Shown piece by piece: positions 3,263 through 47,386 of a stretch of 47,386 nt of DNA. This DNA comes from a virus. Lineage: Duplodnaviria > Caudoviricetes. The stretch spans positions 1 to 47,386 of the IMG/VR virus record IMGVR_UViG_3300043412_000080. The stretch is one strand, 5' to 3'. The notes under the pieces were generated by a model. It was not told the DNA's origin and searched no databases. It worked only from the letters and a program-made list of their open reading frames with translations. The position numbers and the translations under genes are program-made. The stretch's first letter is position 1; the number at the start of each line of letters is the position of its first letter.

Positions 3263-3291
3263 TTGACATTAACTGTCATGCTAGCTACAAT
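3263..3291 (+). promoter_or_regulatory. sigma70-like promoter
   Basis: TTGACA(3263)-17bp-TACAAT(3286); the ORF-track TTG start coincides with this -35. Confidence 0.75.
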
Positions 3292-3337
3292 GATATTACA
3301 AGGACGCAATCAAGCGGACAAAGTAAGGGAACGGGCC

Positions 3338-3862
3338 GTGAGAAACGCAGTAAAAACAGGAAAAACACAAAAAAAACAAATCCAATTTTGTTTTAATGGC
3401 ATCGAATTTTGGGTTAAAAAATCGGAATCTGAAAATCAGGATTTTATTTTTGCACGCTATAAAGAGGTGTGTAAAAAGATAAAAGCGTTTGCTGGGGCGG
3501 CGGGCGAAGAAGAATCAGATCCAGTGGTGGCATGTGAGGAGGAGGAGGAGGAGGAGGAGGAGGAGGAGGAGGAGAATTTTTACGATGTTATTTTGCGTTG
3601 GACGGAAATATTGCGTGAAAATTTTGGTGATATTTGTGAGAATTCATCGAGAATAAGTTTATCAACATACCTATCTATCCCTTGCGACAAAGAGGGAGAG
3701 TCTGTAAATATTCGCATATCAGACCACAGGGCTGGGTCAAGATGTGGCGTGTCTGATGTATATCTTGGCACATATGCGGAGGCATACAGCCTTGACAATG
3801 AAAATGAATTACAAATTGTATTAAACCAAATAAAAATATTAAAAATAAATAAAGGATTTTAA
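3338..3862 (+). CDS. hypothetical protein with poly-Glu linker and C-terminal SLSTY...IRISDH domain
   Basis: In-frame GTG after AAGGGA RBS, downstream of the promoter; 174 aa. Confidence 0.7.
   Translation: MRNAVKTGKTQKKQIQFCFNGIEFWVKKSESENQDFIFARYKEVCKKIKAFAGAAGEEESDPVVACEEEEEEEEEEEEENFYDVILRWTEILRENFGDICENSSRISLSTYLSIPCDKEGESVNIRISDHRAGSRCGVSDVYLGTYAEAYSLDNENELQIVLNQIKILKINKGF
3536..3574 (+). repeat. perfect (GAG)13 trinucleotide repeat
   Basis: Read directly; encodes E13. Confidence 0.95.
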
Positions 3863-4428: not shown

Positions 4429-4446
4429 GCGATTCCTTTATTAAAT

Positions 4447-4639
4447 TGGTGGGGGCAGTAAATTTTAGGTAGCATTTACAACCTTGTTACTCCGTCAGCG
4501 TGCCATTATGTAACTTAACCACGCTTCCCTCTAGGGAGTACCCCCATAAATTAGAAAGCAAGGAATCGGGGTAATTAATCCCTACCCTTGCTCTTAATGC
4601 AGTATCTTTGTCTAGAATCACGCAATACCGCCAACCACA
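4447..4639 (-). ncRNA. structured leader/ncRNA ending in a 99-nt tRNA-like domain (4545-4447) with 3' ACCA
   Basis: GGGGG...CCCCC-A-CCA closing stem; UACUCC/GGAGUA, AGCGUG/CACGCU and AGGU/ACCU helices; upstream GCGGUAU/AUACUGC and AGCAAGG/CCUUGCU hairpins; promoter TTGACA(4672-4667)-16bp-TATATT(4650-4645). Confidence 0.6.
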
Positions 4640-4668
4640 CCCGAAATATAACACGCATTACAGATATG

Positions 4669-5403
4669 TCAAGCGTTATTTACCTGTCTTGCGTAATAAA
4701 TTGCCCTGTGATGTTGGCAATATGTCTGTGACGGGTCAATCTGTGTAAGACAAAATGTGTCTTTATCGTCGTTTGTGTTGATGCCCCTGCAGGTTGTGGC
4801 GGTTAATTGCGTTATATCTAGGGCTGATAAATCAGATTCCAGCAGGTGACGCACTTTTTTTCTGTCTGCAGCCATCACCTGAAAAAACTCAATTTTTGAT
4901 TTTATCGGCTGGGCTTTAACTTTATTGACCACCCTAAAATCACGTGCGAATTGCCGAGGTTTTTCTATGTCCGTGATAATTGATGTTAAATCCTTGATTC
5001 GTTCTTTGGGTGTGTAGGTTCGCACTTTTTGATTGTTCAACCCATATAACCTAATTTTATGCTTAACAGTGGATAGCTTTAAACCTAATTTAACCCCTAT
5101 TACAGCAGCTGTAAGTCCTTTCTCTATGTACCAGTGCCGAATTGCCTCTTTGCCAGTGCGGGGGCATTCTGGGTTGTCTGTGGACTTGTTTATTTGAGAT
5201 ATCATGTATTGTGTTTTACAAGTTCCAAATTTTTCTTTAAATTTTGTGGATAATGCAAAAAAAGCGATTGCATAATTCAGGATGGCACGGGTGAACCCCA
5301 TGATTCTGCCTATTTCAGGATTTTTGTGCGTCCCGCTTAAATACAATTCGGTGATTTGTTTTTCTTGTTCGGGAGTAAATTTATGTTTTTTTGGGTTTGC
5401 CAC
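4669..5403 (-). CDS. gcrA: GcrA-like transcription activator with tandem HTH domains
   Basis: C-terminal ITQLTATTCRGI...TFCLTQIDPSQTYCQHHRAIYY matches the GcrA LxELxxxxCRWP...FCG...YCxxHxxxAY motif; GLTAAVIGVKLG...KIRLYGL resembles the GcrA HTH. Confidence 0.75.
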   Translation of the reverse strand: MANPKKHKFTPEQEKQITELYLSGTHKNPEIGRIMGFTRAILNYAIAFFALSTKFKEKFGTCKTQYMISQINKSTDNPECPRTGKEAIRHWYIEKGLTAAVIGVKLGLKLSTVKHKIRLYGLNNQKVRTYTPKERIKDLTSIITDIEKPRQFARDFRVVNKVKAQPIKSKIEFFQVMAADRKKVRHLLESDLSALDITQLTATTCRGINTNDDKDTFCLTQIDPSQTYCQHHRAIYYARQVNNA

Positions 5404-7091: not shown

Positions 7092-7221
7092 TTTTAGATT
7101 GGATATAATCTATTAAAACACGACGCATAAACTCCGACATATTTAACCGCTCATCATGTGCTGCATTACTCACCATCTCTTTAAATTCAAAAGATGCTTT
7201 TATTAAGATTTGTGTTTCCAA
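7069..7221 (-). CDS. ribbon-helix-helix regulator (50 aa, TTG start, not in ORF track)
   Basis: METQILIKASFEFKEMVSNAAHDERLNMSEFMRRVLIDYI; GGAGG RBS; upstream TTGAAA..TATACT promoter. Confidence 0.75.
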   Translation of the reverse strand: METQILIKASFEFKEMVSNAAHDERLNMSEFMRRVLIDYIQSKNEAKNAK

Positions 7222-7304
7222 TTATGCCTCCAAGGTTAATTATATATAGTATATACAATATTTATGTAATTTCAAATAAAAAAACCCCGATTAAGTGGCT
7301 TTCA

Positions 7305-8759
7305 TTAAATATTTGGATTGTCATTTTTTTTGTTTTTTTGTTTCTTTTTATTTTTGATATTTTCGCCGTAAGGTGTAACGCCTGAATCCCGTGTATAGTC
7401 TTTGATTGTGTTTTTACCCATATTGCAGGCACATTTTGCAATTCCAATCTCTCCCTGCCTGTTTTTGGCAACAATCAATTCCATGTAGTCAGAATAATAC
7501 TCACGTTCCGAATCAGGCTCATCACGTTCATATTGCGATGGACGAAATGGGAATATAATAATGTCAGCATCTTGCTCAATCGCTCCCGACTGTCTTAAAT
7601 GTGCCATATTAGGACGCTTTGCCTCAATGCTTTCATTCTTTTCTAAGTCACGATTAAGCTGTGATAATAAAATAACGGTTGCGTTTAAACGCTTTGCAAG
7701 GTTTTTAAGTTTTTGTGTGATTTCAGCAATCGAATCATTTTCACTTTTAAACGCCACCCGTTCCCGTGGGATTATCTGTAAATAATCAATCGCAATACAA
7801 TCAAGTCTTTTGCCAATCCGTAAAAGCTCTTTTGCTTTGCGTTCGGATATTGCACATATTTGATTTATATCAGGCTGTGAAAAATCATGCGTTATATTAT
7901 TATGATTTTTAGCACGCTCAACAAGTTCACGCACTGATTCGCCGTCCACTTGGTGGCGGGTCAAATCTGTATAATTTATCTCTTTTGTTTCAAGTGCTAT
8001 GAATCTTGATATGGTTTGTTGATTGGACATCTCAAGAGAAAAATTAATAACGTTATGCCCTTGTGATGCTATGCTATCAATAAACGCAAGTAATACAGCC
8101 GTTTTACCCATTGACGGACGACCACCAATGACAATCATTTCAGCTGGTCTAAAGCCACCAATTAAATCATCAAGTGAAGTTATAAGGCTTGGAATGTTTG
8201 TATTTTTATCACTTAGATAATCATCTAAAAATAAATCCATCGCATCGGTATGTGATAATTGATTTTGATTTATTATCGGTGATAAAAGTAAATTATCAAC
8301 CTTTGACTTCAAGCTATCCATAAACTTTAAAACATCGTTAAAGCATAATTTATCCATACCATTTAAGGCATTAGATAGTGCCTCTTTTATTTTTCTTTTT
8401 CTGTGCTGGTCATCTAAATCAAAAGCGTATGATTGAGCCGTTAAAAAGCCATTAGGCTGGTGACGCATTAAATTCATGACGTAATCATATTTATCATCAT
8501 CAAATTTATTCTTTAAATTCAAAACCGAAAATCTAAAATCGCCATCGAAAGATTCCAATAATAGGCTATAAAATTCTGCTAAAAACGAATCATCAAAATG
8601 TTCAGGTGTTATAAATGGGAATGGGTTTTGCTTGCCTTGGCACGCCTCGAATAATGCAAAGCCTAAAAATTCATTGCATAATTCAAAATTTAATTTGTCA
8701 TCATTGCTAATATTTGCATCATCAAGATTAGTTTTGTCTAAAAGCGATTGAATGTCCAT
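7305..8759 (-). CDS. dnaB: replicative DNA helicase DnaB
   Basis: GGRPSMGKT, FSLEMS, IDYLQ, LLSQLNR, LRQSGAIEQDAD, VAKNRQG. Confidence 0.97.
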   Translation of the reverse strand: MDIQSLLDKTNLDDANISNDDKLNFELCNEFLGFALFEACQGKQNPFPFITPEHFDDSFLAEFYSLLLESFDGDFRFSVLNLKNKFDDDKYDYVMNLMRHQPNGFLTAQSYAFDLDDQHRKRKIKEALSNALNGMDKLCFNDVLKFMDSLKSKVDNLLLSPIINQNQLSHTDAMDLFLDDYLSDKNTNIPSLITSLDDLIGGFRPAEMIVIGGRPSMGKTAVLLAFIDSIASQGHNVINFSLEMSNQQTISRFIALETKEINYTDLTRHQVDGESVRELVERAKNHNNITHDFSQPDINQICAISERKAKELLRIGKRLDCIAIDYLQIIPRERVAFKSENDSIAEITQKLKNLAKRLNATVILLSQLNRDLEKNESIEAKRPNMAHLRQSGAIEQDADIIIFPFRPSQYERDEPDSEREYYSDYMELIVAKNRQGEIGIAKCACNMGKNTIKDYTRDSGVTPYGENIKNKKKQKNKKNDNPNI

Positions 8760-9009: not shown

Positions 9010-9080
9010 ATGTATTCTATTTTTATATTTTTTGCAATAAAAAAATACTTGCACAGAATTTATTTTTATGCTATATATCA
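9010..9080. promoter_or_regulatory. divergent promoters for the replication and recombination operons
   Basis: Plus strand TTGCAC-17bp-TATATA with extended TG; minus strand TTGCAA-17bp-TACATT. Confidence 0.6.
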
Positions 9081-12006: not shown

Positions 12007-12444
12007 ATGAAAGCTGAGCAAAATTTAACAGAACCCACCGACACGCAAGATGCTTTTTGGTTGGTGTGGTGTCCGCAAGGCACGACGCCAAAGTATAGGC
12101 ATAGCACAAGGGAATCCGCTGAAACCGAAGCTGAACGATTAGCACAGCAAGACCAGAGCAGGGATTTTTATGTGGTTAAAGCACAAAGTTTGTATAAAGC
12201 AGAAGTTTTGATAAAAACAACAAATTTTGAAAATGACACAGTATCTAAAAATAGTTTCAAAATCGGCGATATTGTTTATGTAACTTGTATTTATACTGGT
12301 GATAAAATAAAAGCAAAAATTAAAGAAATACTCAAGAAAAAATATTGTTATATTAAGGTTTTAACGCAAAACACGCATGATAAACCTTATAGCAGTAATC
12401 AAATTTATCAGTTTAATTTAAAAAAATTAATACCTTTTGAATAA
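12007..12444 (+). CDS. hypothetical protein
   Basis: FWLVWCPQG..P.YRH....AETEAERLA phage motif; AAGGA RBS. Confidence 0.7.
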   Translation: MKAEQNLTEPTDTQDAFWLVWCPQGTTPKYRHSTRESAETEAERLAQQDQSRDFYVVKAQSLYKAEVLIKTTNFENDTVSKNSFKIGDIVYVTCIYTGDKIKAKIKEILKKKYCYIKVLTQNTHDKPYSSNQIYQFNLKKLIPFE

Positions 12445-12448
12445 AAAT

Positions 12449-12472
12449 TAAGGGGCGTAAAGCTCCTTTTTT
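12449..12472 (+). terminator. intrinsic terminator between convergent genes
   Basis: AAGGGGC-GTAAA-GCTCCTT followed by a T run. Confidence 0.7.
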
Positions 12473-13324: not shown

Positions 13325-13420
13325 CACAGCATTACAAGACATTGTTAAAAAAGTCAATAAAAATTATCCATAAATTACATAAAAAGTATTGACATTGATT
13401 TGGTTGCGTGGTATTGTTTA
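13325..13420. promoter_or_regulatory. second divergent promoter pair
   Basis: Plus strand TTGACA-17bp-TATTGT; minus strand TTGACT-17bp-TAATGC. Confidence 0.65.
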
Positions 13421-13786
13421 GGGGTGATAAAAAAAGGAATGACTATGACGGAATTTTTAGAATTACAAACCATGATACAAAACGCATTTGAGGATATTGA
13501 ATGCACGGATTACAAAACGGGACTCGAACGCCAAAACGAAAGTGCAAACCTTATTTTCATTAAAGCAATGTTGTCTTATGGTGGGGCAATAGCAAAGACG
13601 CCACAGTGTAAACGAACGCTTGAGAATATGATTCAGGTGGGACTTAAACAGGTTAATCATGTAGATAACCTATGTGGTCCTGATGTTGTTGATATGATTG
13701 ATGATGTTGTTGATGATGAATCACAGGATTCAGAGCCTGCATTCGACAAAGAAAATTATTACTCAGAAAGATACGGAGATTTATAA
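13400..13786 (+). CDS. hypothetical acidic early protein (true start probably about 13446)
   Basis: AAAGGA RBS before MTEF; acidic C-terminus. Confidence 0.65.
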   Translation: MVAWYCLGVIKKGMTMTEFLELQTMIQNAFEDIECTDYKTGLERQNESANLIFIKAMLSYGGAIAKTPQCKRTLENMIQVGLKQVNHVDNLCGPDVVDMIDDVVDDESQDSEPAFDKENYYSERYGDL

Positions 13787-14067
13787 TGAAATGGAATTTT
13801 AACTTAGACGAGTGTCCAGAGTGGGAACAAGTTGTATTATTTCAAGAAGTAAATGTCAATGGTACAGATACAGGTGAAAACTTACTGGGATTTAAAGTAG
13901 ATGATAAATTTTATCAAACAAGTGTTTTAAATTCATTTTATACAATGAATGACGGCGGAGTCGTATATTCAGACGCAAGTTTTGAAGATATTGATGATTT
14001 TCAGGAATACGAAGCAGATAACATTAAGGCATTTTGCATAATTCCACAAATTAAAAAAAAGGATTGA
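13786..14067 (+). CDS. hypothetical acidic protein
   Basis: GGAG RBS, coupled start. Confidence 0.65.
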   Translation: MKWNFNLDECPEWEQVVLFQEVNVNGTDTGENLLGFKVDDKFYQTSVLNSFYTMNDGGVVYSDASFEDIDDFQEYEADNIKAFCIIPQIKKKD

Positions 14068-14432
14068 ATTATGAATACACAACAACCAACACCCACCACG
14101 CAAGATAAAAATGAACCAGAACATTTTGATTTCGGTGTTGCAATACGCCATTTAAAAGATAAAAAGGAAGTTGCACGAACTGGTTGGAATGGTAAGCGTA
14201 TGTTTTTATTTATCATACAAGGCAGTAACGACATTGCTAAATTAAATGGATATGGCTTTGGTGAGTATGAAAACGAACCCACATTTCAAGACGCTATTTT
14301 CATGCGTACAGCAGATAATAAATTAGTCCCTTGGCTTGCGTCACAAACCGATGTCTTGGCAGATGATTGGGTCATTTATAGTGCAACGCATTGATTTGTA
14401 AATATTTTTTAAAAAAAGGATTGAATTATGAA
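14054..14432 (+). repeat. 22-bp direct repeat AAAAAAAGGATTGAATTATGAA flanking tad2
   Basis: Copies at 14054-14075 and 14411-14432, each containing an RBS and ATG. Confidence 0.9.
14071..14394 (+). CDS. tad2: DUF2829 / Tad2-family anti-Thoeris nucleotide sponge
   Basis: FGVAIRHLKDKKEVARTGWNGKRMFLF ... VPWLASQTDVLADDW signature. Confidence 0.88.
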   Translation: MNTQQPTPTTQDKNEPEHFDFGVAIRHLKDKKEVARTGWNGKRMFLFIIQGSNDIAKLNGYGFGEYENEPTFQDAIFMRTADNKLVPWLASQTDVLADDWVIYSATH

Positions 14433-14565
14433 GTATTACAAACCTGAACCGCAGACGCAGACAAAGGTTGAGAAGCCCGAAGAACCTAAGTTCGGAAATT
14501 GCATTTTACTTTTTGGTATTGCGTGCTTTTTGGTTTTCTGTTTTATGCTTATCGTTCCAAGATGA
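14428..14565 (+). CDS. small membrane protein (45 aa, not in ORF track)
   Basis: MKYYKPEPQTQTKVEKPEEPKFGNCILLFGIACFLVFCFMLIVPR; starts in the second repeat copy. Confidence 0.6.
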   Translation: MKYYKPEPQTQTKVEKPEEPKFGNCILLFGIACFLVFCFMLIVPR

Positions 14566-14801
14566 TTAATCACCGCCTAAAAATAACTTACACTAAGGAC
14601 AATCAAGAAGAATCCTTAGTTACTGAAATTAAAGCCACACCGCCCAAACACAGCATAAATGATGCGGTTAAAATCCTGCATGATGCGTGCGTAAATAAAG
14701 GCGGTGTGGTTAAGTCAATAAAGGGACTTCGTGGTGCGTCCGATGAATTGCACCATACAGAATGGATCTTTGAAAAGGAAATAAAATGGCAGCAACAATA
14801 A
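14562..14801 (+). CDS. hypothetical protein
   Basis: ATGA-coupled start inside the ORF-track frame 14499..14801. Confidence 0.55.
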   Translation: MINHRLKITYTKDNQEESLVTEIKATPPKHSINDAVKILHDACVNKGGVVKSIKGLRGASDELHHTEWIFEKEIKWQQQ

Positions 14802-15415
14802 TTGACGCTGATGTATTAAGAGCTTGGGCAATAAAACAATTAGAAATATCAACAAAAGCTATGGATAACTGCAATACAAATTTTAAATTAAGGGGTAAGC
14901 ATAGCGGTTCTATAGTTGTTTTAGAATCAATTATTGATAAAATCAATGAACTATCCACGCATACCCCCATGGCAAAAAATGCAACTATTGCCTATATAGT
15001 AGGCGATAGATGTATCATCAACATTATCGGCGACACCTTAGTGACATATGCAGGTTTTGCAGATGGCAAGCATAAATTTATTGCAAGCAAAACAACAACA
15101 TATACCACAGTTGATTTAATCGACGTCGAGAATATTGATATGACATATCGCTCTTTATCTGCTGCTGTGGTGCAAGAGGGTGACGGGTGGTGTTATGATT
15201 TAACGCCGTTAGAAGAAGATGAAGTATATCATGTTCTAATAGAAAGCCCTAGAGAAAAACTGGGCAGTAAAGCAACCAGTGGCAAAAAATACTATTACCA
15301 AGATATTGATACTTTATATGTTATAAAATCAAACTTAGAAGAAAATGAAAATCACGGTGATAGGATTATTGCATGGCAACCACTGCCACCAATTCCAACG
15401 AGGGGTGATTTATGA
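14786..15415 (+). CDS. hypothetical protein with DUF551-like C-terminus
   Basis: IIAWQPLPPIP end motif; AAGGA RBS. Confidence 0.7.
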   Translation: MAATIIDADVLRAWAIKQLEISTKAMDNCNTNFKLRGKHSGSIVVLESIIDKINELSTHTPMAKNATIAYIVGDRCIINIIGDTLVTYAGFADGKHKFIASKTTTYTTVDLIDVENIDMTYRSLSAAVVQEGDGWCYDLTPLEEDEVYHVLIESPREKLGSKATSGKKYYYQDIDTLYVIKSNLEENENHGDRIIAWQPLPPIPTRGDL

Positions 15416-15571
15416 CTTTAAGCTATAAGCGTGAATTATTACGTTTTTAAAACTACGAAGATGTATTTTTTAATTTTTCAAATGAACGGGCTACATATTT
15501 TTTGGAACAAGAAAACAAATATCATTGGCGGACACAACAAGTGCCTCAAGATATTCAATGACGGAGGAGTT

Positions 15572-15793
15572 ATGAAGCTGTTAATCATTTTCTTTTTGTT
15601 ATGCTGCACAGCTTTTGCAAGTGACGAATGGTTTTATCCCAAGGTTTATAAAGGCATAATTTTTGCCTGTATAAGCCAAAAGACCAGTAACGATACAATG
15701 GATAGAATGAACCTTGATTTATCCGACCCTGGAATCCAGTTTATTAACTGCCCCATACAAGAAAAGGAAACAGACGAATATGACAACCGATAA
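15572..15793 (+). CDS. small secreted protein
   Basis: GGAGGAG RBS; MKLLIIFFLLCCTAFA signal peptide. Confidence 0.65.
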   Translation: MKLLIIFFLLCCTAFASDEWFYPKVYKGIIFACISQKTSNDTMDRMNLDLSDPGIQFINCPIQEKETDEYDNR

Positions 15794-16103
15794 GATCCCA
15801 TTTATTAACAGCAATAAACAATATGAATTAGCAGATGCTGAACAATTGGAGTCATTGCCAAGGATTCCTGATTTATTACATTCATTCCAGTTTCTAAATG
15901 AAGCACATGAAATCCAACGCAAGCACGGATTGAGGCTAGAGGAAACCGTGAATAATGAATTAGTGCCTATGCAAGGCGAAAACGCAAGACTCAATGAATA
16001 TATTGATGACCTTACGTGGGAATTAAAAGTGGCAAAGCACTATGCGGTTATTGTGTCAATATTATCGCTTGGAATAATCGCATTTTATACGCTTAGGGGG
16101 TAA
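15780..16103 (+). CDS. coiled-coil protein with C-terminal TM helix
   Basis: AAGGA RBS before MTTDK; YAVIVSILSLGIIAFY. Confidence 0.65.
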   Translation: MTTDKIPFINSNKQYELADAEQLESLPRIPDLLHSFQFLNEAHEIQRKHGLRLEETVNNELVPMQGENARLNEYIDDLTWELKVAKHYAVIVSILSLGIIAFYTLRG

Positions 16104-16106
16104 ACT

Positions 16107-16583
16107 ATGCAAGCCATAGGCAAGATGATTGCGATTTTATTCATTGCCACGCAGGCTTACAGTGCGGAACGTATAATGCCCCCGCTGGGTTACTTGAACG
16201 GTGTTATTAATAAGAATATAACACCGTCCAGTGAAAACTGCAACCCTTTAACGCATAACCAGTTAATGACTTATACCGAGTCGGTTTGGTGGGCTTTGGA
16301 TTTTAAAGCTGATGATACTGAAAACTGGACTGAAACGCCAAGCGGAATGGGTGATTGCGAGGATTATGCTTTAAAACTTAGAAAGATATTAATTGATGCG
16401 AATATATCGAATCAGTATTTTTCTTTGGCGGTGGTTGATGGTGATGTTGAGGGAATAAACCACGCCGTCTTGATTGTCACCACGAGCGACAGAGGGCGGT
16501 TTATGTTTGACAACAAAGGATTACACAGTATGAATAAGTATAAATTATTGAAAATTGAGCAAAATGGGTGGTGGTATAAATGA
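16107..16583 (+). CDS. transglutaminase-like cysteine peptidase (BTLCP/C93, LapG-like), exported
   Basis: GDCEDYALK, NHAVLIVTT and FMFDN give the Cys-His-Asp triad; N-terminal signal peptide ending AYSA. Confidence 0.88.
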   Translation: MQAIGKMIAILFIATQAYSAERIMPPLGYLNGVINKNITPSSENCNPLTHNQLMTYTESVWWALDFKADDTENWTETPSGMGDCEDYALKLRKILIDANISNQYFSLAVVDGDVEGINHAVLIVTTSDRGRFMFDNKGLHSMNKYKLLKIEQNGWWYK

Positions 16584-16810
16584 AGTTTTATTGTTTTCAC
16601 ACAGACGAAATAAAATTAGACAGTAAATTTATTGCTTTTTATATCAATGGAAGCGGTGGTGATTTATTTTCAATGGATAAAGACGGTGCAATAAGATGTG
16701 CAGATGGTGATTATGTATCTACAGACTGGCTTTTAGATGCAAGTTTTTGTCTTTTTGCATATCTACCTAAGAAATTCTTATTACATTACGAAATTAAGGA
16801 GCTAAAATGA
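16580..16810 (+). CDS. hypothetical protein
   Basis: Coupled ORF, 76 aa. Confidence 0.6.
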   Translation: MKFYCFHTDEIKLDSKFIAFYINGSGGDLFSMDKDGAIRCADGDYVSTDWLLDASFCLFAYLPKKFLLHYEIKELK

Positions 16811-16959
16811 ATCTAGACCGTACATTCTGTGCTTCACCGAATTGTAAAAACGATTGCGGACGCAAAATAACAGAAGCAGAAAAAGAGTTTTTGCGTAAAG
16901 AACGAGAGGCAGGTATTAACCGACCTACTTCAAACGGTTATTTCTGTGGGGAATCATGA
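16807..16959 (+). CDS. small Cys-rich protein (50 aa, not in ORF track)
   Basis: MNLDRTFCASPNCKNDCGRK...YFCGES; AAGGAG RBS; ATGA-coupled on both sides. Confidence 0.7.
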   Translation: MNLDRTFCASPNCKNDCGRKITEAEKEFLRKEREAGINRPTSNGYFCGES

Positions 16960-17327
16960 TAATATACGAAAGAACAATCCGCAAGAATGGGGAGGATATA
17001 GGTAATGTGTGCCTTATTAAATATCCAAATTTAAGCGTACCATTTTTGCAATATGCTGTTATGCCACCATATCAGAATCAGGGTATAGCGAGCCGTGAAG
17101 TTGCATCATTCTTGAAAGATTGTCACAAAAATGGACACAATAGAATATCCGCTATGGTACAGCACTGCAACGTTGCAAGCATGAAAATTATTGAGAAAAA
17201 CAATTTTGTAAAGATTAAAAACTTTGAGAATGTTTTTACATATTTAATTGATTTGCGAATCAGTAAAGAAAAACTACAGGCGGTGATGGATAATTTTAAA
17301 ACAACCAGCCAGCATTTCAGAGTTTAA
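16956..17327 (+). CDS. GNAT (RimJ/RimL-like) acetyltransferase
   Basis: YAVMPPYQNQGIAS acetyl-CoA motif; NVASMKIIEKNNF. Confidence 0.85.
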   Translation: MIIYERTIRKNGEDIGNVCLIKYPNLSVPFLQYAVMPPYQNQGIASREVASFLKDCHKNGHNRISAMVQHCNVASMKIIEKNNFVKIKNFENVFTYLIDLRISKEKLQAVMDNFKTTSQHFRV

Positions 17328-17383
17328 AGGTGTTGGATTCTACACCTTTAGAATTAACAATTAATATTAAAGGGTGAATTATT

Positions 17384-17602
17384 ATGGGAAAGTTTTTTTT
17401 AGGAATATGTATTACTTCTGCTTTATTTCTTGCTTTTTTTGGTTGGCATTTTGAGACGCAAAGATTTAATCTGTGTGGAAAATTATATCCGATTAAAAAA
17501 GATTTTGATTATTGCTATGCTGAATCTAAATCTATAGATTTGGAATTTAAATTTACTGACAAGTTTGTAAAAAATATCAATAAGAAGATTAATAAACACT
17601 AG
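17384..17602 (+). CDS. small membrane-anchored protein
   Basis: N-terminal TM helix; AAGGGTG RBS. Confidence 0.6.
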   Translation: MGKFFLGICITSALFLAFFGWHFETQRFNLCGKLYPIKKDFDYCYAESKSIDLEFKFTDKFVKNINKKINKH

Positions 17603-17626
17603 TGTTTATTGCAATACATACCAGAT

Positions 17627-17663
17627 AAAAAGCTACTACAAGTTAATGTGGTGGCTTTTTTTT
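17627..17663 (+). terminator. intrinsic terminator
   Basis: AGCTACTACA-AGTTAA-TGTGGTGGCT followed by a T run; G-U pairs favour the plus strand. Confidence 0.8.
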
Positions 17664-17673
17664 ATATTTTTTA

Positions 17674-17794
17674 TCAAACCGAGGGGAATCGAACCCCTAT
17701 GTCATGCTATGTGTTAGCCTAACACAATAATCGCAAAGATGAAACCCTCAAGGAGCGACATATCCATTAGCACATTACTCATCATACGGTTTGA
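17674..17794 (-). ncRNA. tRNA-like ncRNA (~120 nt) with its own promoter
   Basis: Acceptor CAAACCG/CGGTTTG-A; canonical T-arm AGGGG-TTCGATT-CCCCT; non-canonical interior; promoter TTGCAT(17830-17825)-16bp-TATAAT(17808-17803) with extended TG. Confidence 0.7.
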
Positions 17795-17905
17795 GTAAAA
17801 TCATTATAACACAATTTTATTAAAATGCAATCCATCATTAACTTTTTGGTAACATCTTTTTGTTATTATCATTTCATAGGGGAATTAACCCCATGGAGTT
17901 TGAAA

Positions 17906-18016
17906 ATGAAAAAACTACATAAAATAACATGGTCAATATGCCAGCACTTAATGTGCGGAGCGTTTTTAATGGGCGTTGCGTTTTGCGTAACACAGACAAT
18001 CGGAGGTATAGCATGA
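17906..18016 (+). CDS. small membrane peptide
   Basis: GGAG RBS; MKKLHKITW...hydrophobic segment. Confidence 0.5.
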   Translation: MKKLHKITWSICQHLMCGAFLMGVAFCVTQTIGGIA

Positions 18017-18171
18017 AATATATTTTAATCATTATGGTTATTTTGTCCGTTACCGCCTGTGCAAGACGTGAACATGAACAAATCCAGTATCGCCAAGCCG
18101 TCGGACGCGAACACATTTACAAAATAATCAAAACAGACGAATTGCGGAGGGATTATTATGAAGCTAGTTAA
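18013..18171 (+). CDS. small lipoprotein
   Basis: GGAGGT RBS; MKYILIIMVILSVTA-C lipobox. Confidence 0.7.
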   Translation: MKYILIIMVILSVTACARREHEQIQYRQAVGREHIYKIIKTDELRRDYYEAS

Positions 18172-18931
18172 AAAAGGGGTCATTGCCGCAGCCGTTCTTG
18201 CATCTGCCTTTGCTGCGTATCAATACGGGCGAATCAGTCAAACACCCATCATTAAGGAGGTCACTGTAAAAGAAAACGTGTATATCCAAGACACGCAGGG
18301 GAAAATTGATGCAGAGAATAAATTAAATTCTGTATTGGAATTTTTAACTGGAGGGCAAAAGATTTTTGCTAAAATGGTTATGGATATGAACATATACACA
18401 AAAAACCCGTTGCAATCATACGAGGACGCTTATTGGTTGGCGGTGGCAATGTATAGGGAATGTGGGATATGTAATGACTCCGAAGCGGTATTCTTGGCAT
18501 ATTCACTTCGTGGATTTTTGCATAACAAGTTAGAACCAAGTATGAAAGCCCTTGTACATCGCAGGGAGGCAAGCGGTGCATACTTCTTATCGTTTGCCAG
18601 CAATAAATCTTTAATGTCCCTACCGAATGTAAAAGATGATGCCATATTCAGACGTTACATTGGTTATGCTTTGTCCGTTTTATACAATGTGCATAACGAA
18701 TCAATTAATACCCAAAATGTGCAAAACATTTACCATCAAATTACAGGAGGCAAAGAAACGGGGATATATTGGTGTAATACCGAATCATCAAAATGTGATT
18801 GGCACAAAGGATATGCAAGGCGTAACGGTACAATCCCGTTTCGTTTAAATTATTCACAGGAATTATCACCAGTGATTAGCGAGAATATCGAATCACTTCA
18901 TAAATTTTATGCAAAGGAACGCAAGATATGA
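18158..18931 (+). CDS. SleB/Hydrolase_2-like cell wall hydrolase, membrane-anchored, divergent
   Basis: WLAVAMYRECG resembles the CLAxAIYFEARG catalytic Glu motif; YFLSF and LHKFY resemble QFSW and HxFY; N-terminal TM. Confidence 0.6.
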   Translation: MKLVKKGVIAAAVLASAFAAYQYGRISQTPIIKEVTVKENVYIQDTQGKIDAENKLNSVLEFLTGGQKIFAKMVMDMNIYTKNPLQSYEDAYWLAVAMYRECGICNDSEAVFLAYSLRGFLHNKLEPSMKALVHRREASGAYFLSFASNKSLMSLPNVKDDAIFRRYIGYALSVLYNVHNESINTQNVQNIYHQITGGKETGIYWCNTESSKCDWHKGYARRNGTIPFRLNYSQELSPVISENIESLHKFYAKERKI

Positions 18932-19111
18932 ATTTTATCAAAGACACAATCACATTATCAGTTTTATCCGCAATCTGTGGGTACGTTGCATCATATCCAT
19001 TTATTCAGGATATGGCGTTTAAATTAGTACAGGGGGTTATATGAGTAATATCCTAAACGCAATCATAGGGCTTGCGATTGTTGCCCTGTACATCATCATT
19101 AAGGGGCATAT

Positions 19112-19339
19112 ATGACAATAACAAAAGAAAAATTAAAATTAATGTTAGATTTATACACAGAGAAGGAATGCCAAAAAATAGATGGTAAAACATATATATC
19201 ATTAAACGGTGCTACAGTTGATGATTTTTTGAGTCATATCTATAGCATATTATGGCAATTACAAGATGCAAAAGATATGCGATACGTTAAATCTTTTGCG
19301 TATGATACGAGTAAAAATAAAATACAGGTGGATATATGA
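19112..19339 (+). CDS. hypothetical protein
   Basis: AGGGG RBS. Confidence 0.6.
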   Translation: MTITKEKLKLMLDLYTEKECQKIDGKTYISLNGATVDDFLSHIYSILWQLQDAKDMRYVKSFAYDTSKNKIQVDI

Positions 19340-19462
19340 CGGAATTATTTAAGCGACTAACCGAGATATTCGCAATCGTGAACGCTGAATATCGTTCGTT
19401 GGATAAGACTGATAAAGAGGCTTTGAAACGTGGTTTACCAAACAACAACAAAGGAGAATAAC

Positions 19463-19714
19463 ATGATTAAATTTTTAAAAAGACTTTTTGTAAAAGAAAA
19501 AAATAGTTCTAATGAAGAAGGTCAAGAAATTGAAAAAGATTTTGATATACTTTATGCTCTTTTTGATGATGATTATTTTAATGAACGAATTAAGGCAAAA
19601 AACGCATTCATAGAGGCGATAGAAAATCCCAATGAAAATCCTAATAATGTTTCAGCAGAAACCAAACAAAAATTTGCTGAATTAATGAAAGGTGATAAAA
19701 ATGCCCGTGATTAA
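19463..19714 (+). CDS. hypothetical protein
   Basis: AAGGAG RBS before MIKF. Confidence 0.6.
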   Translation: MIKFLKRLFVKEKNSSNEEGQEIEKDFDILYALFDDDYFNERIKAKNAFIEAIENPNENPNNVSAETKQKFAELMKGDKNARD

Positions 19715-20008
19715 CACAATCTTAACTACCATGTGGCATAATAAAATGAATAGATGGTTGCGAGGCAATGCACGCAATCAGAATACACCGAAGGACGATT
19801 TATGGATTATCGTAGATGATTCGGAATGGTCAAAATTAAACAACAACTTATCGAAGGATACGACAAAATGGACAGATTAAATCAAGCAATATACGACGCA
19901 CGCAATGCCTGTGAAGTCATGGAGCGTTACGAGAAAAAACGAATCATAGAGGAACGTAAACTATCCGAAGCGGATTACTTGCGCATAAAAAACGCCCCAC
20001 AGAATTAA
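19692..20008 (+). CDS. two small overlapping hypothetical genes (19692-19880 and 19826/19868-20008)
   Basis: Consecutive coupled ORFs with RBSs. Confidence 0.5.
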
Positions 20009-20120
20009 CCGTGGGACTATTTTTGAGCCTGACGAACTCATGTTTTAGTCAAATATTAAAACATACTAAAATCATAATATTGCACTAAAAATGTGTGACG
20101 ACACCACGCCGTCACATCTT
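19987..20120 (-). ncRNA. candidate sRNA (~135 nt)
   Basis: Promoter TTGCAT(20154-20149)-17bp-TATAAT(20131-20126); hairpins UGUGACGGC/GUCGUCACA and AUGUUUUA/UAAAACAU; terminator GUCCCACGG-UUAAUU-CUGUGGGGC-GUUUUUU that pairs fully only on the minus strand. Confidence 0.7.
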
Positions 20121-20333
20121 TTATTATTATATGGTGATTCGTTAGGAAATGCAACATACACAATTAATTTTATATACAAGGTTAATTATGTATGTTATAA
20201 AATAAACAGTGGTTCGCATAAGGCGAATCAGAAAAAATAAAAAAGGGATAAATATGAACATTGAACAAAAAATTTCCGACATTAATATTATTATCTGCAA
20301 GAACGCCATTTTTAAACTGGATTAGAGGCTAGA

Positions 20334-20609
20334 ATGAAAAATCTATACACAGATGCACAGAAACAAATACGCCTTGCATTAATGATACGAATGCAGGGTG
20401 AATTACAGGTAATTAAACGCCGTCAAATCGGCAAATTTTTACCGCCAGCCCAAAAGATTGATTGGGATTATCTGTCTGAATTTCTAGATAATACGCCCAT
20501 CAATACCATTAAATCTTGGTTGCGGACAAATACGAATACCAAACAAATACAGGGCGTTCCGCTGTCAAAAGTGAAATGGATTGAAAATAAATTAAAGGAG
20601 GTTTTATGA
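20334..20609 (+). CDS. possible HTH DNA-binding protein
   Basis: DYLSEFLDNTPINTIKSWLR; GAGG RBS. Confidence 0.55.
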   Translation: MKNLYTDAQKQIRLALMIRMQGELQVIKRRQIGKFLPPAQKIDWDYLSEFLDNTPINTIKSWLRTNTNTKQIQGVPLSKVKWIENKLKEVL

Positions 20610-20986
20610 CGTATAAAATGCAATTAGATTGTATTTCACAGGGCTTTGAAACTGCTACATCAAAGGCAATAAAGTCTATCGAACGAGAAAAAAAAGAATT
20701 TTCACAATATTTAAAAATTGTGGAATTTATTTTTAGGGAAATATTGGTGCCTGAAAAATTACATGAAAATGTAAAAATCACGAATAACGGCGTTTTTAGA
20801 ATTGAAATCACTTTAGACGATGCGTTTAAAATAAATAAGATTCTTTTACATATTCAGGGTGATATAGTTACTATGATAAATGATGATTTTTATGATAAAA
20901 AATTTTCAATTTCACATGGGCTGTATCCGTTAAAAGTGAACATATTAGAACACATCAATCATTTTAAAGTGGTGGGTGTGGAGTGA
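20606..20986 (+). CDS. hypothetical protein
   Basis: GGAGG RBS, coupled. Confidence 0.65.
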   Translation: MTYKMQLDCISQGFETATSKAIKSIEREKKEFSQYLKIVEFIFREILVPEKLHENVKITNNGVFRIEITLDDAFKINKILLHIQGDIVTMINDDFYDKKFSISHGLYPLKVNILEHINHFKVVGVE

Positions 20987-21126
20987 CAAAGTCCGAGCAA
21001 AAACCGCCTAAAACGCCCGAAGAAAAAATAACCCGCTTAGAGAAAGAGGTTTACATTTTGCAAACGCACGTCAAACATATCTTTGATGTGCTTAAATTAA
21101 ACAACATAAAATGGTAAGGATAAATT

Positions 21127-21474
21127 ATGACAGATAGAATAATCAAGGTTGATGCGTTGTTGAGAGCTTTGGCGGATAGAAAACCAAGGGCTATACACAA
21201 TCCGCCTGTTGCTATTGGCTATGGACAGGCAATGTGTGATTTAGAAGAGATTATATCAGAGATTGCAACAACTGCCCCCGAAACACAGGAAAGCGTAAGT
21301 ATTGATAAAATAATGGAGGTTTATAACCATATCAAAAGTAAGCAACAAGAAGCAGCATTACTTCCTAGTAATAAATTTGATAAAAAAGTTGTTGAACAAG
21401 TATATTCCACACTTGATGTAGTGATTAAGGCAATTACAAAAACACCAACGAAAGGAACAAATCATGGAATTTGA
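21127..21474 (+). CDS. hypothetical protein
   Basis: AAGGA RBS; RIIKVDALL N-terminus. Confidence 0.7.
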   Translation: MTDRIIKVDALLRALADRKPRAIHNPPVAIGYGQAMCDLEEIISEIATTAPETQESVSIDKIMEVYNHIKSKQQEAALLPSNKFDKKVVEQVYSTLDVVIKAITKTPTKGTNHGI

Positions 21475-21913
21475 CAAAGAAAAATGGGGTGCCTATGTCC
21501 AAGAGCAGGGCGGTCATAAAAACCTAGCATCAACCGCTATGGAAAATAGAGTCATTCAATATTGCTATCTTTATGATGATGCACTGGAGGCATTTGAAGA
21601 TGATTTTAACCCTATTATTCATAGTGGCGACACGGCTTTATTTATGGCTTTAAAGCTAGATATAGAAGAGTTTATTCTGCCCGAACCAGTGCAAACAGTC
21701 ACAGGCATTGAGGCTTTACAGGCTTTGTGTGATGGTAAAGTGTTGAGGCTCAACTCAAATTCAGACCAGCGTGTTGATTATGAAATTCATGGGAGACATA
21801 TTATGCGACGCTACGTAGGAAATAAAGATTTTGAATATTGTTACCAACCAAGAGAGGATTCTGGTGCAGATTTCTTTTTAAATCATATTTTCGAGGTGAT
21901 ACCATGCCAATAA
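21464..21913 (+). CDS. hypothetical protein
   Basis: AAGGA RBS; internal TGIEALQALCDGKVLR motif. Confidence 0.7.
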   Translation: MEFDKEKWGAYVQEQGGHKNLASTAMENRVIQYCYLYDDALEAFEDDFNPIIHSGDTALFMALKLDIEEFILPEPVQTVTGIEALQALCDGKVLRLNSNSDQRVDYEIHGRHIMRRYVGNKDFEYCYQPREDSGADFFLNHIFEVIPCQ

Positions 21914-22083
21914 TTATATTGATTTTAATCGGAGTTGCGATTTACGCAATCGTGACGATTGGTTTTCAGTCGTGGCTTGGGATATGCCTTGCCGCACTGT
22001 GTGTAATGCTTTTAATCGCTTTAAACGAAAGCAAACCAAAGCAGAAAAAAGATGATGACGATAACGATTTTATGGGTATGTGA
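21904..22083 (+). CDS. small two-TM membrane protein
   Basis: GAGGTG RBS; two hydrophobic helices and an acidic tail. Confidence 0.65.
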   Translation: MPIIILILIGVAIYAIVTIGFQSWLGICLAALCVMLLIALNESKPKQKKDDDDNDFMGM

Positions 22084-22094
22084 TGATTAAATAA

Positions 22095-22134
22095 CAAAAA
22101 AGCCCGTACATTTTACCGTACGGGCTTAATTTTT
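22095..22134. terminator. terminator between the convergent early and late operons
   Basis: AAGCCCGTAC-8nt-GTACGGGCTT; the U tract is best on the minus strand. Confidence 0.88.
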
Positions 22135-22213
22135 GTTACAAGAAAAGGAACTAACTTATGACAGACAGAATGAAAAAAAATAAATAAGAATTACAAATCA
22201 AGACAATTTGTAA
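22095..22213 (-). ncRNA. candidate trans-acting anti-RBS sRNA (~120 nt)
   Basis: Promoter TTGCAA(22246-22241)-17bp-TACAAT(22223-22218); 5' hairpin; AUUCUGUCUGUCAUAAGUUAGUUCCUUUUCU is complementary to the start of gene 21127; strong terminator. Confidence 0.65.
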
Positions 22214-22250
22214 GATAATTGTAACTTATATTTAAGGACATTGCAAGCGT

Positions 22251-22661
22251 TTATTTTGCCTGAACTAGCAGGAAACGCCCTTGCGACACGTGCCTATGCG
22301 AATGGTTGGGAGATTTAAATTCATTTAATATTTTATCCCGTATTGCGTCACATTTAATCAAACTCGAACGCTTGCATATTGAATTATTTGTGTAAAAAGA
22401 TGATAAAGGCAAACAAACGTGCATTATACCCCAGCCTAAGGCTTGCCACGTTGGTATTTTCATATAATCACTATTAATTATCCAATTAGTACCACACACG
22501 ACCATCACCACCGATGCCGCAAGAAAAAATATAAGTGCACTTCTTTTATCAGAATCAATAATCGCATGATTAAACCATAAATTTAATCCACAATATGCCG
22601 ACGACGCGACGTAACATGACACCATGCCAATGCTTAGCATTCCTAAAATAAGTTCTTTCAT
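22251..22661 (-). CDS. multi-TM membrane protein in the lysis region
   Basis: Three hydrophobic segments; downstream of the endolysin. Confidence 0.6.
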   Translation of the reverse strand: MKELILGMLSIGMVSCYVASSAYCGLNLWFNHAIIDSDKRSALIFFLAASVVMVVCGTNWIINSDYMKIPTWQALGWGIMHVCLPLSSFYTNNSICKRSSLIKCDAIRDKILNEFKSPNHSHRHVSQGRFLLVQAK

Positions 22662-22879
22662 TGTGTAACCACAGCTCCAAATGATTTTATAAATATTTCA
22701 ACAATTTTTATCACCAATTCAGGCTTTAGGATTGCCATGATAAGAAAAAACAAAAACAAAAAAACAGTTTTTACCAAAATAGGCAAGTTTTTATTCGCAA
22801 GGATATTGCTTTTTTCTAATTCAGTATTCATTGCGTCAATCCGCTTTTCAAGTTCTTGTATTTTATCGGTATCATTCAT
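22658..22879 (-). CDS. holin-like membrane protein
   Basis: Coiled coil plus TM helix, coupled to the endolysin. Confidence 0.5.
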   Translation of the reverse strand: MNDTDKIQELEKRIDAMNTELEKSNILANKNLPILVKTVFLFLFFLIMAILKPELVIKIVEIFIKSFGAVVTQ

Positions 22880-23298
22880 GCCGCCACTCTGTAACTAATC
22901 ACGTTTGTTTTTTTTAACCATAAATAACAAACTTTGTTTTTTTGATTACCGCCATAAACTAAGATATGGTTATCACGTTCTTTGCCTGCGTAAAAACCAA
23001 CGTGTCCTTGCACGGGAGAACTGCCACGCTTTAAAACCACGATACAGCCCGTAAATGGTGTTTTTACCGCCTGCCCCCAGTTTAACCATGAACGAGCCAA
23101 AGCCGAGCCTGTGCCTTTAATCCCTGCTTTTTGGCAGCACCAATTAACGAATGATGAACACCATGCTGTTTCGTCGTTGTTTGCCTTAAGTGTCGTTGCA
23201 CTATGATATTCTACGATGCGTGGATTATCGACACCGCCAACGATTTCAGCGGTTTTATATTCTTTTAATGCTATATCGTATATCGCTTGTTGTGTCAT
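22876..23298 (-). CDS. endolysin, TIGR02594 family (CHAP/NlpC-like peptidase)
   Basis: NPRIVEYH, DETAWCSSFVNW, SALARSWLNWG, GHVGF, GGNQ. Confidence 0.92.
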   Translation of the reverse strand: MTQQAIYDIALKEYKTAEIVGGVDNPRIVEYHSATTLKANNDETAWCSSFVNWCCQKAGIKGTGSALARSWLNWGQAVKTPFTGCIVVLKRGSSPVQGHVGFYAGKERDNHILVYGGNQKNKVCYLWLKKTNVISYRVAA

Positions 23299-23462
23299 AA
23301 AATCCCCAGTCTTAATAATTTAAACGCAATCCAGTCAATACGCTTTTTTTGCGGTTCGGTTAAGAATTGCACATTATCACGTAAACCATTATGCAATTCA
23401 ATATACTTGTCTTTATCTTTATTATTACGTAAAGAATGAACGCCGATGTAATAAACTTGCAT
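23295..23462 (-). CDS. hypothetical protein (55 aa, not in ORF track)
   Basis: AAGGAG RBS; MQVYYIGVHSLR...; stop overlaps the endolysin start. Confidence 0.6.
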   Translation of the reverse strand: MQVYYIGVHSLRNNKDKDKYIELHNGLRDNVQFLTEPQKKRIDWIAFKLLRLGIL

Positions 23463-23465
23463 AAA

Positions 23466-23717
23466 TTAAGCTCCTTCATAAATTTCAGTCAGCGTAACCT
23501 GCTTATTGCAATAACTGCAAAAACACATAAAATTACTGCCTATTTGCCAATCCCTGCCACCACACGAACCACATAAAAAAACATTTATAACTTTATTATC
23601 ATTAGCATTAATTTTCAAGGCACGTTTTGATTTTTTTACCCAAACTACAGATTCATTGAAAACTCCATAATTTATAAATGATTTTATAAACACCTTACAA
23701 TCAATCCTTTTTCGCAA
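23466..23717 (-). CDS. small zinc-ribbon protein
   Basis: CGSC...CSYC. Confidence 0.55.
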   Translation of the reverse strand: MRKRIDCKVFIKSFINYGVFNESVVWVKKSKRALKINANDNKVINVFLCGSCGGRDWQIGSNFMCFCSYCNKQVTLTEIYEGA

Positions 23718-23795
23718 AATTTTTTAACGCACAAGCTAGAAAAATTAACCATACAACAGCGAATATGATTAATAATATACATTCGCCATCAATCA

Positions 23796-23963
23796 TTATT
23801 TATCCTTTGCACGCCCAAAATTAAAGGCAATTATTTCAATCACTTTATATGCCTTGCCCAGTGCTGTATCAGGTGACGGAGTCGGCGTGGCAAAACACAC
23901 CACACTGCATATTGATATAAAAATAGGCATTGTGTCAAGAATTTTGTAAAGTAAGTCAATCAT
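23796..23963 (-). CDS. holin-like small membrane protein (55 aa, not in ORF track)
   Basis: MIDLLYKILDTMPIFISICSVVCFATPTPSPDTALGKAYKVIEIIAFNFGRAKDK; TPTP motif typical of small lysis-cassette proteins. Confidence 0.7.
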   Translation of the reverse strand: MIDLLYKILDTMPIFISICSVVCFATPTPSPDTALGKAYKVIEIIAFNFGRAKDK

Positions 23964-24601
23964 ATTAGCTTTGCCTCAAATTTATCAATATGTATCCCCG
24001 CTGTATCAGTTGTCATAACTGTGGTACGCACGCCAGCCGAACCTGCACCTGTAATACCCGTATCTGTCACATTAATTCTAGCAACACCGTCAATGATTCC
24101 CTGAATATTTGAACCATTCATGTATAATAAAATTTCACGAGAACCAGAATTAAAAGTTTCTACATAAGTTCCGAGATTTGTCGTCGCACCATTGATACTT
24201 TTAAATAATAACCAATTCCCAGATGTTTTATCGTATCGCAACGCATAAAATGTATTCTGCCCGTCCGCCGTGGCACGTCCAACAATACCACAACCCACTA
24301 AAGCAAAGTCTGCAATAAAATCAAACTTCGCATAGACAGAATAATTAGGCGTTGGCATAACATAAGATGTGCGATACACATTAGATGATGCCCTGCCAGA
24401 TAGGCGATTATTTACAATCACGGCTTGCGTTATAGTCGTGGTTTGTGCCTGCCATACAGCGTTTTTATCACCTGTATGTGATGTGATGCTTGTGTTATTT
24501 GTATCTGTAAAGTTATCAATAACTGACAACGAATCACGGCTAGAAAAAATAGAACTTATTAATCCTGATGATAAATTACTACCTAAGTTTGCACTAAGCA
24601 T
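23960..24601 (-). CDS. beta-sandwich (lectin-like) virion accessory protein
   Basis: DNFTDTNNT...YALRYD...GITGAGSAGV...IDKFEA. Confidence 0.6.
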   Translation of the reverse strand: MLSANLGSNLSSGLISSIFSSRDSLSVIDNFTDTNNTSITSHTGDKNAVWQAQTTTITQAVIVNNRLSGRASSNVYRTSYVMPTPNYSVYAKFDFIADFALVGCGIVGRATADGQNTFYALRYDKTSGNWLLFKSINGATTNLGTYVETFNSGSREILLYMNGSNIQGIIDGVARINVTDTGITGAGSAGVRTTVMTTDTAGIHIDKFEAKLI

Positions 24602-47374: not shown

Positions 47375-47386
47375 GGTATCATTGCC
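47375..47386. other. cosN, right copy of the 12-nt cohesive end
   Basis: Identical to bases 1-12. Confidence 0.8.

Follow-up and report, generated by a model that had tools for sequence, protein, structure and literature searches.

A candidate minus-strand small RNA at the early/late junction of an uncultured freshwater phage, predicted to pair with three early gene starts

Organization of the early/late junction

The window analysed here comprises an entire IMG/VR virus record (47,386 bases, G+C content 36%) of an uncultured freshwater phage; the record was found in one freshwater run, which may be its source. It encodes a contractile-tailed phage with genes for terminase, portal, capsid, sheath, baseplate, DnaB, an O-like initiator, an exonuclease and an SSB; neither an integrase nor a CI-type repressor was found among the ORFs scanned (82 against PHROGs and 56 against Pfam). 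The same 12 bases occur at 1-12 and 47375-47386, immediately upstream of terS, so the record may be circular and complete, though it is classed as linear and 73% complete. A GcrA-like regulator encoded at 4669-5403 on the minus strand matches PF07750 barely over the cut-off (27.6 bits against 26.9); it is a candidate activator of middle or late promoters, and the match suggests an alphaproteobacterial host. The CHAP/TIGR02594 gene and its neighbours (22251-24601) share 56-79% identity with AT-rich phages of very different gene order (L002:9352-10387 and L166:9184-10432), and such lysis-cassette genes common to differently ordered phages point to a common host group. Elsewhere in the window, the plus-strand ORF 3263-3862 contains ~11 glutamates in a row, belongs to no family and is preceded by a strong promoter, the -35 of which overlaps the TTG listed as its start. 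A 240-nt structured leader with several hairpins and no Rfam match lies ahead of the Arc-like gene (4429-4668, minus strand).

The late genes lie on the minus strand (45636 to 22251) and the accessory early genes on the plus strand (13445 to 22083). They converge on a gap of 167 nt (22084-22250), which holds the candidate sRNA unit. The features of the gap and its flanks, including those of the Shine-Dalgarno (SD) type, are as follows:

21904..22083, plus strand: last early gene, encoding a 59-aa hydrophobic peptide with a charged tail and no Pfam or NCBIfam match
22094..22127 (stem 22100-22127), both strands: intrinsic terminator with an 11-bp stem, its U tail perfect on the minus and weaker on the plus strand
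22137..22150, minus strand: anti-SD element, complementary at 14/14 positions to the SD region of gene 15780 and at 12/12 to that of the minus-strand gene 13090
22156..22171, minus strand: 16-nt anti-AUG seed, at the DNA level a direct repeat of 21125-21140
22158..22187, plus strand: SD and 9-codon mini-ORF behind the terminator; no promoter found
22172..22190, minus strand: unpaired U-rich linker, possibly a chaperone or RNase E site
22191..22213, minus strand: weak AU-rich 5' hairpin (-5.6 kcal/mol), beginning at the predicted +1
22218..22223, minus strand: predicted -10 hexamer TACAAT after a 17-nt spacer, identical to that of the promoter at 3263; start site predicted near 22211
22241..22246, minus strand: predicted -35 hexamer TTGCAA, 5 nt past the stop codon of the last late gene, identical to that of the leftward early promoter at 9037
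22251..22661, minus strand: last gene of the late operon, third in the cassette headed by the CHAP/TIGR02594 gene

The terminator at 22100-22127 was scored on both strands and is common to the late operon and the last early operon, with its stem 16 nt past the last early stop codon compared to 123 nt past the last late one. The extra stretch on the late side comprises, in minus-strand order, the promoter, the start, the hairpin, the U-rich linker, the anti-AUG seed, the anti-SD element and the terminator. The predicted minus-strand RNA of ~118 nt (22211-22094) is framed by the promoter, the 5' hairpin and the terminator. All parts of the sRNA layout put forward in the original prediction (promoter, 5' hairpin, seed and terminator) have a counterpart here, but the hairpin is weak and the promoter is a predicted site whose strength depends on the model used. 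What can be read directly in the sequence is the repeat of the 21127 start, the anti-SD element, both hairpins, the convergent arrangement and the shared terminator.

The fold z-score of the unit, -4.4, is due to the terminator and drops to -0.6 without it. Rfam gave no match in the window at the gathering threshold, and the sub-threshold matches (MicC, 27 vs 90 bits) rest mainly on the terminator. One contig at a depth of 26, possibly the window's own source, has no variant at the unit. Four TTACAA/TTGTAA hexamers, which could be operator half-sites, lie within 90 nt (22135-22225), and two of them make the 5' hairpin. A YUNR motif picked out by eye in the plus-strand terminator loop was discounted as a likely chance occurrence in a U-rich loop.

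Predicted pairing with early gene starts

On the plus strand, 22156-22171 differs from 21125-21140 at a single one of its 16 bases; this C/T difference, at a silent third codon position, becomes a G-U pair for the minus-strand RNA. The contiguous 16-nt pairing with a single G-U over the AUG of gene 21127, on which the original prediction was built, is thus borne out, as is the adjacent pairing with the Shine-Dalgarno sequence of that gene: RNAduplex predicts 16 + 3 + 5 + 2 pairs between the unit RNA and 21127, a duplex of 26 bp and -28.0 kcal/mol that extends over the SD. The 16-mer is also the best contiguous match of the 152-nt segment in the whole window on both strands. As plain DNA, it reaches a blastn E of 0.39 within the genome, and six of 300 dinucleotide shuffles of the 63-nt core can form a single helix with 15 Watson-Crick pairs at one or another start; taken alone, the 16-nt match is modest evidence.

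The similarity to 21127 ends at the seed, with 5/27 identical positions upstream and 8/30 downstream in the ungapped register, and the SD-to-ATG spacing is 8 in the segment compared to 6 in 21127. The SD part of the segment best matches 15780 and its spacer best matches 13445. Judged by these alignments, the segment appears to be a mosaic of start-like parts, unlike the decayed duplicate at locus L059 (see below).

Once opening costs are counted, three predicted targets stand out among the 79 phage starts:

21113..21140, plus strand: target 1 (-22.8 kcal/mol), the SD and first codons of 21127-21474, whose 115-aa product yielded no homolog
15756..15792, plus strand: target 2 (-22.5 kcal/mol), the SD and start of 15780-16103, whose 107-aa product has a hydrophobic C-terminus and reaches no family cut-off
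13427..13452, plus strand: target 3 (-20.8 kcal/mol), the SD and start of 13445-13786, a gene for 113 aa that comes first after the promoter at 13389

The next start reaches -15.8 kcal/mol and the median is -6.9 kcal/mol. All three duplexes use the same 35 accessible nucleotides (22137-22171), with a seed opening cost of ~2 kcal/mol. The three standout targets are all plus-strand accessory early genes, whose products have no significant match in Pfam, PHROG, NCBIfam or Atlas that would point to a function; taken as a whole, early starts do not pair significantly better than late ones (p 0.10). In these models, the triple start pairing is a stronger signal than the 16-nt match alone. Gene 21127, the target originally proposed, does come out on top of the 79 starts, but the target set differs and consists of 21127, 15780 and 13445. 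Among the weaker matches named before, the one at 13445 stands out, whereas arc 4428 (-12.4 kcal/mol) and 9477 (-12.5 kcal/mol) are ordinary and were rejected as targets. Gene 15780 had been missed; it pairs at 14/14 bases over its SD.

Several controls place these energies in context. None of 300 shuffles matches the sum of the best four targets and two reach the best energy. Compared to 37-nt intergenic windows, the unit ranks 1 of 514, and 0/505 windows outside it are as good; the unit is less GC-rich than most of the runner-up windows. When real gene starts are read backwards, two of the 79 equal the best-three sum and five equal the best single duplex; on the measures of the shuffle test, the corresponding numbers are 4, 10 and 3 of 79. 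The shuffle and intergenic controls, set against the backward real starts, indicate that the segment is certainly start-like and that it belongs to the top few per cent among start-like sequences. A G-U direction test was neutral (31/77 and 11/77). The opening-cost scan and the intergenic and backward-start controls used 79 valid starts; the start lists included three misplaced starts in the shuffle test, one in the RNAduplex target scan and one in the G-U direction and start-pattern counts.

Promoter, sister units and relatives

The promoter-like site TTGCAA-17-TACAAT (22246..22218, minus strand) is of the host sigma-70 type, as are the phage's early promoters, and its -35, together with the C before it, is similar to the RpoD consensus of alphaproteobacteria given in the available text of PMC8844928. 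A stock promoter scan scores it 9/12, as one of 37 sites compared to 27 expected. A loose phage-type pattern has 20 matches, nine of them intergenic, in a genome with ~7% intergenic DNA. When 94,712 positions are scored with a weight matrix trained on eight other sites, 22246 comes out first, a result equalled by 2/2000 shuffles; a matrix from six promoters at coding-operon starts ranks it 11th (0/1000 shuffles). Without its two most similar members, the six-promoter matrix ranks the site 151st (168/1000 shuffles), and the plain sigma-70 consensus ranks it 166th, with 173/1000 shuffles as good. The strength of the promoter depends on the model (shuffle p from 0.001 to 0.17), and the truth lies between the extremes, because the training sites of the phage-trained models were picked after site 22246 had been seen. 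On the plus strand, the best promoter site ahead of the mini-ORF's SD ranks beyond 2,300 under each of the latter three models.

A terminator scan from 22251 to 22128 found no other good terminator, and the late RNA is therefore predicted to carry the seed regardless of the promoter. The RNA may thus come from its own host-type promoter, from the 3' end of the late message, or from both. The earlier suggestion that late transcription could silence early genes holds in so far as the late RNA is predicted to end here; this is, however, one of two possible sources, given the sigma-70-type promoter of the unit itself.

A strict promoter pattern, TTG[AC][AC][ACT]-16/18-TA[CT]AAT, which was written after the sites had been seen, has four matches in the window, all intergenic; the leftward three lie at 22246, 20154 and 17830. 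The latter two head further units:

19985-20154, minus strand: second sRNA-like unit, with TTGCAT-17-TATAAT, a hairpin at +1, a long AU stem and a fold z-score of -6.4
17630-17830, minus strand: third unit, with TTGCAT-16-TATAAT, a tRNA-like RNA and a two-way terminator

The terminator of the 20154 unit overlaps the last codons of gene 19868-20008, an OOP-like layout. None of the 79 starts stands out as a target of this unit; its best match is an 11-nt pairing between its 5' hairpin and the AUG of 21904 (-9.2 kcal/mol net), which may be due to chance. The 17830 RNA has an acceptor-like stem of 7-8 bp, a T-arm-like hairpin and a long middle, and no encoded CCA; ARAGORN and Rfam make no call on it, and no look-alike was found in GenBank phages. 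These sister units make minus-strand RNA genes in this phage more credible, without proving the function of the 22246 unit.

Searches for relatives covered GenBank phages, viral contigs and metagenomes. Neither 20300-23300 nor the unit has a meaningful blastn match among GenBank phages, protein queries with 21127, 21464, baseplate J and 18158 against viral contigs brought up no relative, and both metagenome scans were empty. A homolog of the unit with conservation or compensatory change was accordingly absent from the GenBank phages, viral contigs and metagenomes searched. Searches with the last late gene and with the CHAP alignment led only to phages of other gene order; these have between one and three lysis-cassette genes in common with the window and lack the segment. 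A search with the Sak4-like alignment found one phage with a common replication module and other structural genes. A CHAP match at E 1e-25 occurred in 0/350 scored genomes in one order and in 0/14 in another. Proteins 89-97% identical to other genes of the phage exist, and 20334, 21127, 21464 and 22251 are single-member protein clusters; this region may be strain-specific or simply unassembled elsewhere.

Interpretation and comparison with known systems

In our judgement, the balance tips towards the minus strand of 22211-22094 encoding an anti-RBS sRNA of ~118 nt with a par-like geometry, directed against 21127, 15780 and 13445. The promoter, the open seed and the three duplexes of -21 to -23 kcal/mol are predicted. 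On the three messages, the sRNA would cover the ribosome-binding site and the start codon by base pairing; the duplexes would stop 30S loading and block translation. It would arise both by initiation at its own host-type promoter and as the 3' end of late transcripts, would accumulate as genomes replicate and late transcription begins, and could serve as a timer that shuts off accessory early genes. The ends of 21127, 21464 and 21904 overlap, so that a block of 21127 might also weaken expression of the two downstream genes. We would go further only tentatively and propose that the sRNA mirrors the start signal shared by several accessory early genes and thereby silences them jointly; it and the two sister units would then be three minus-strand RNA genes, each closing one in a series of early operons, and the sRNA would act as a toxin-free, par-like timer.

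The main competing explanation, which we hold to be rather unlikely, regards the plus strand as the idle remnant of an early gene start, left by recombination at the edge of the lysis cassette behind the terminator; the three matches would reflect a common start style and nothing would be regulated. The start style is indeed common, as 20 of the 26 AAAGGA-N-ATG sites that the genome contains coincide with annotated starts, 15 of 77 phage starts begin with ATGAC, and an SD followed by ATGACAGAYAGAAT in viral contigs is a plain gene start with a frame of at least 54 aa in 15 of 16 matches. A remnant would also suit the silent position of the single differing base, the neutral G-U direction test and the last late gene, whose likeness to its relative stops at residue 116 of 136. 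Yet only two of the 79 real starts pair as well with three others, no frame is open past 9 codons, the frames after the A run close within five, and outside the seed there is no likeness to 21127. A remnant also leaves unexplained the minus-strand promoter with a hairpin at +1, it has no plus-strand promoter, and the late operon would transcribe even a remnant backwards. The decayed duplicate start with a mini-ORF, named at the outset as the finding that would speak against an sRNA, is thus partly recovered: the 9-codon frame exists and two backward starts are as good, but the plus-strand promoter is missing and the likeness stops at the seed. Start copies are known elsewhere, which again favours a remnant. 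The phage itself has sense duplicates of starts (14071/14428, 22/22), and a truncated start copy occurs at L059. A rough background set, made up of the window and 237 fetched loci (238 sequences, 3.7 Mb, 8,206 called starts), contained just three orphan start copies at 15/16 identity, namely the phage unit, a tandem repeat and L059. The last is a truncated paralog with 20/30 identity downstream. A copied-start origin and an antisense-RNA function are compatible.

The L059 copy (12150-12450 vs 7150-7400) comprises 19 codons of a gene start 5 kb off with a similar upstream element, and is a plain decayed duplicate. In the phage, 14051-14075 and 14408-14432 are the near-identical 25-nt starts of a Tad2-like gene (PF11195) and the next gene, which suggests gene shuffling at start sites. 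The idea of a cassette inserted between the two 16-nt repeats was rated low, because its excision would also take away the only good terminator between the convergent operons.

Three further explanations appear less probable. An sRNA with mainly host targets, whose anti-SD/anti-AUG stretch acts broadly like AbcR1/2 and whose phage matches are side effects, is improbable in our view. The anti-SD element is accessible, alphaproteobacteria, the likely host group by the GcrA match, have anti-SD sRNAs with large target sets according to the available text of PMC8844928, and PreS and VpdS are described, in the portions of the literature at hand, as working on host mRNAs; the longest helix, however, is formed with a phage gene 1 kb off. 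Still more improbable is that plus-strand read-through leads to translation of the 9-codon frame, which would then encode a micro-peptide or form the ribosome-protected leading part of an RNA antisense to the lysis genes. Read-through is possible because the plus-strand U tail of the terminator is imperfect, and the SD is strong and at a usable distance, but this explanation lacks a plus-strand promoter ahead of the SD and leaves the match to the 21127 start to chance. We consider it very improbable that the RNA is a type I antitoxin acting through the shared terminator on the 59-aa membrane peptide of 21904-22083: the convergent, par-like layout with a small hydrophobic, charged-tail peptide would fit, but the direct repeat covers the 21127 start instead of that of the peptide, 21904 is outside the 16 best targets, and the peptide, at 59 aa, is without a PxxxG motif.

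Early-gene shut-off in small dsDNA phages is usually credited to protein repressors. The literature searched, which included few subscription journals, yielded no example of a phage that represses several of its early genes by means of an sRNA carrying a copied start. If true, the anti-RBS sRNA would indicate a route by which such RNAs originate, namely a gene-start copy placed backwards in a 3' UTR; its weight is limited by the single genome and by targets without family assignment. The phage sRNAs treated in the available parts of 10.1101/2024.10.31.621285 and PMC12197685 target host mRNAs or a single gene.

In its layout, the candidate unit resembles par of the Enterococcus faecalis plasmid pAD1, with its RNA I, RNA II and Fst (PMC7472228, as far as its available text describes them). 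Both have convergent RNAs, here predicted, that share a bidirectional intrinsic terminator, and in both, direct repeats of the DNA read in opposite directions cover the SD and start of the target, here with 16 nt over the AUG and 5 nt over the SD of 21127. They differ in the target, which is a 115-aa protein encoded in a multi-gene operon 1 kb off in the phage, compared to the 33-aa Fst toxin on a 230-nt message described for par. In addition, the phage unit has two more predicted targets, 6 and 9 kb off, its RNA is ~118 nt long, and it is set at a phage early/late junction. No toxin of the Fst/Ldr type with PxxxG was identified, as the 115-aa target is without a family and the 59-aa peptide has neither PxxxG nor a Pfam match. 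A stem that hides the SD, as in the par toxin message, was likewise not found at 21090-21170, which folds worse than shuffles (z +0.95). An Fst-type toxin pair was rejected.

Among phage RNAs, VpdS of VP882 is said to affect both phage and host mRNAs in the accessible portions of 10.1101/2024.10.31.621285 and PMC12197685. As far as they are described there, VpdS and PreS of lambda are phage-encoded sRNAs with their own promoter and terminator and an unpaired seed, a make-up that the candidate unit would share, with a predicted promoter whose strength varies with the model; a sequence comparison made through Rfam gave no match. The targets described for VpdS and PreS are mostly host mRNAs and Hfq is needed, whereas the unit is predicted to form long duplexes with the phage's own early starts. 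In the available text of PMC12197685, P22 Sar blocks initiation of ant translation and lambda OOP is listed as cis-acting on cII. Like these two small RNAs, the candidate would lower the expression of phage genes through base pairing, but each of the two is described with a single target linked to the lysis-lysogeny choice, whereas here a separate copy of the start would do the pairing. Finally, the rhizobial AbcR1/2 and NfeR1, in so far as PMC8844928 presents them in its available text, share with the unit as predicted here a length of ~115-120 nt, a single-stranded anti-SD motif, several targets blocked at the RBS and a sigma-70-type promoter. They are chromosomal and use short C-rich seeds against transport targets, whereas the phage unit would combine a U-rich anti-SD element with a 16-nt anti-AUG seed.
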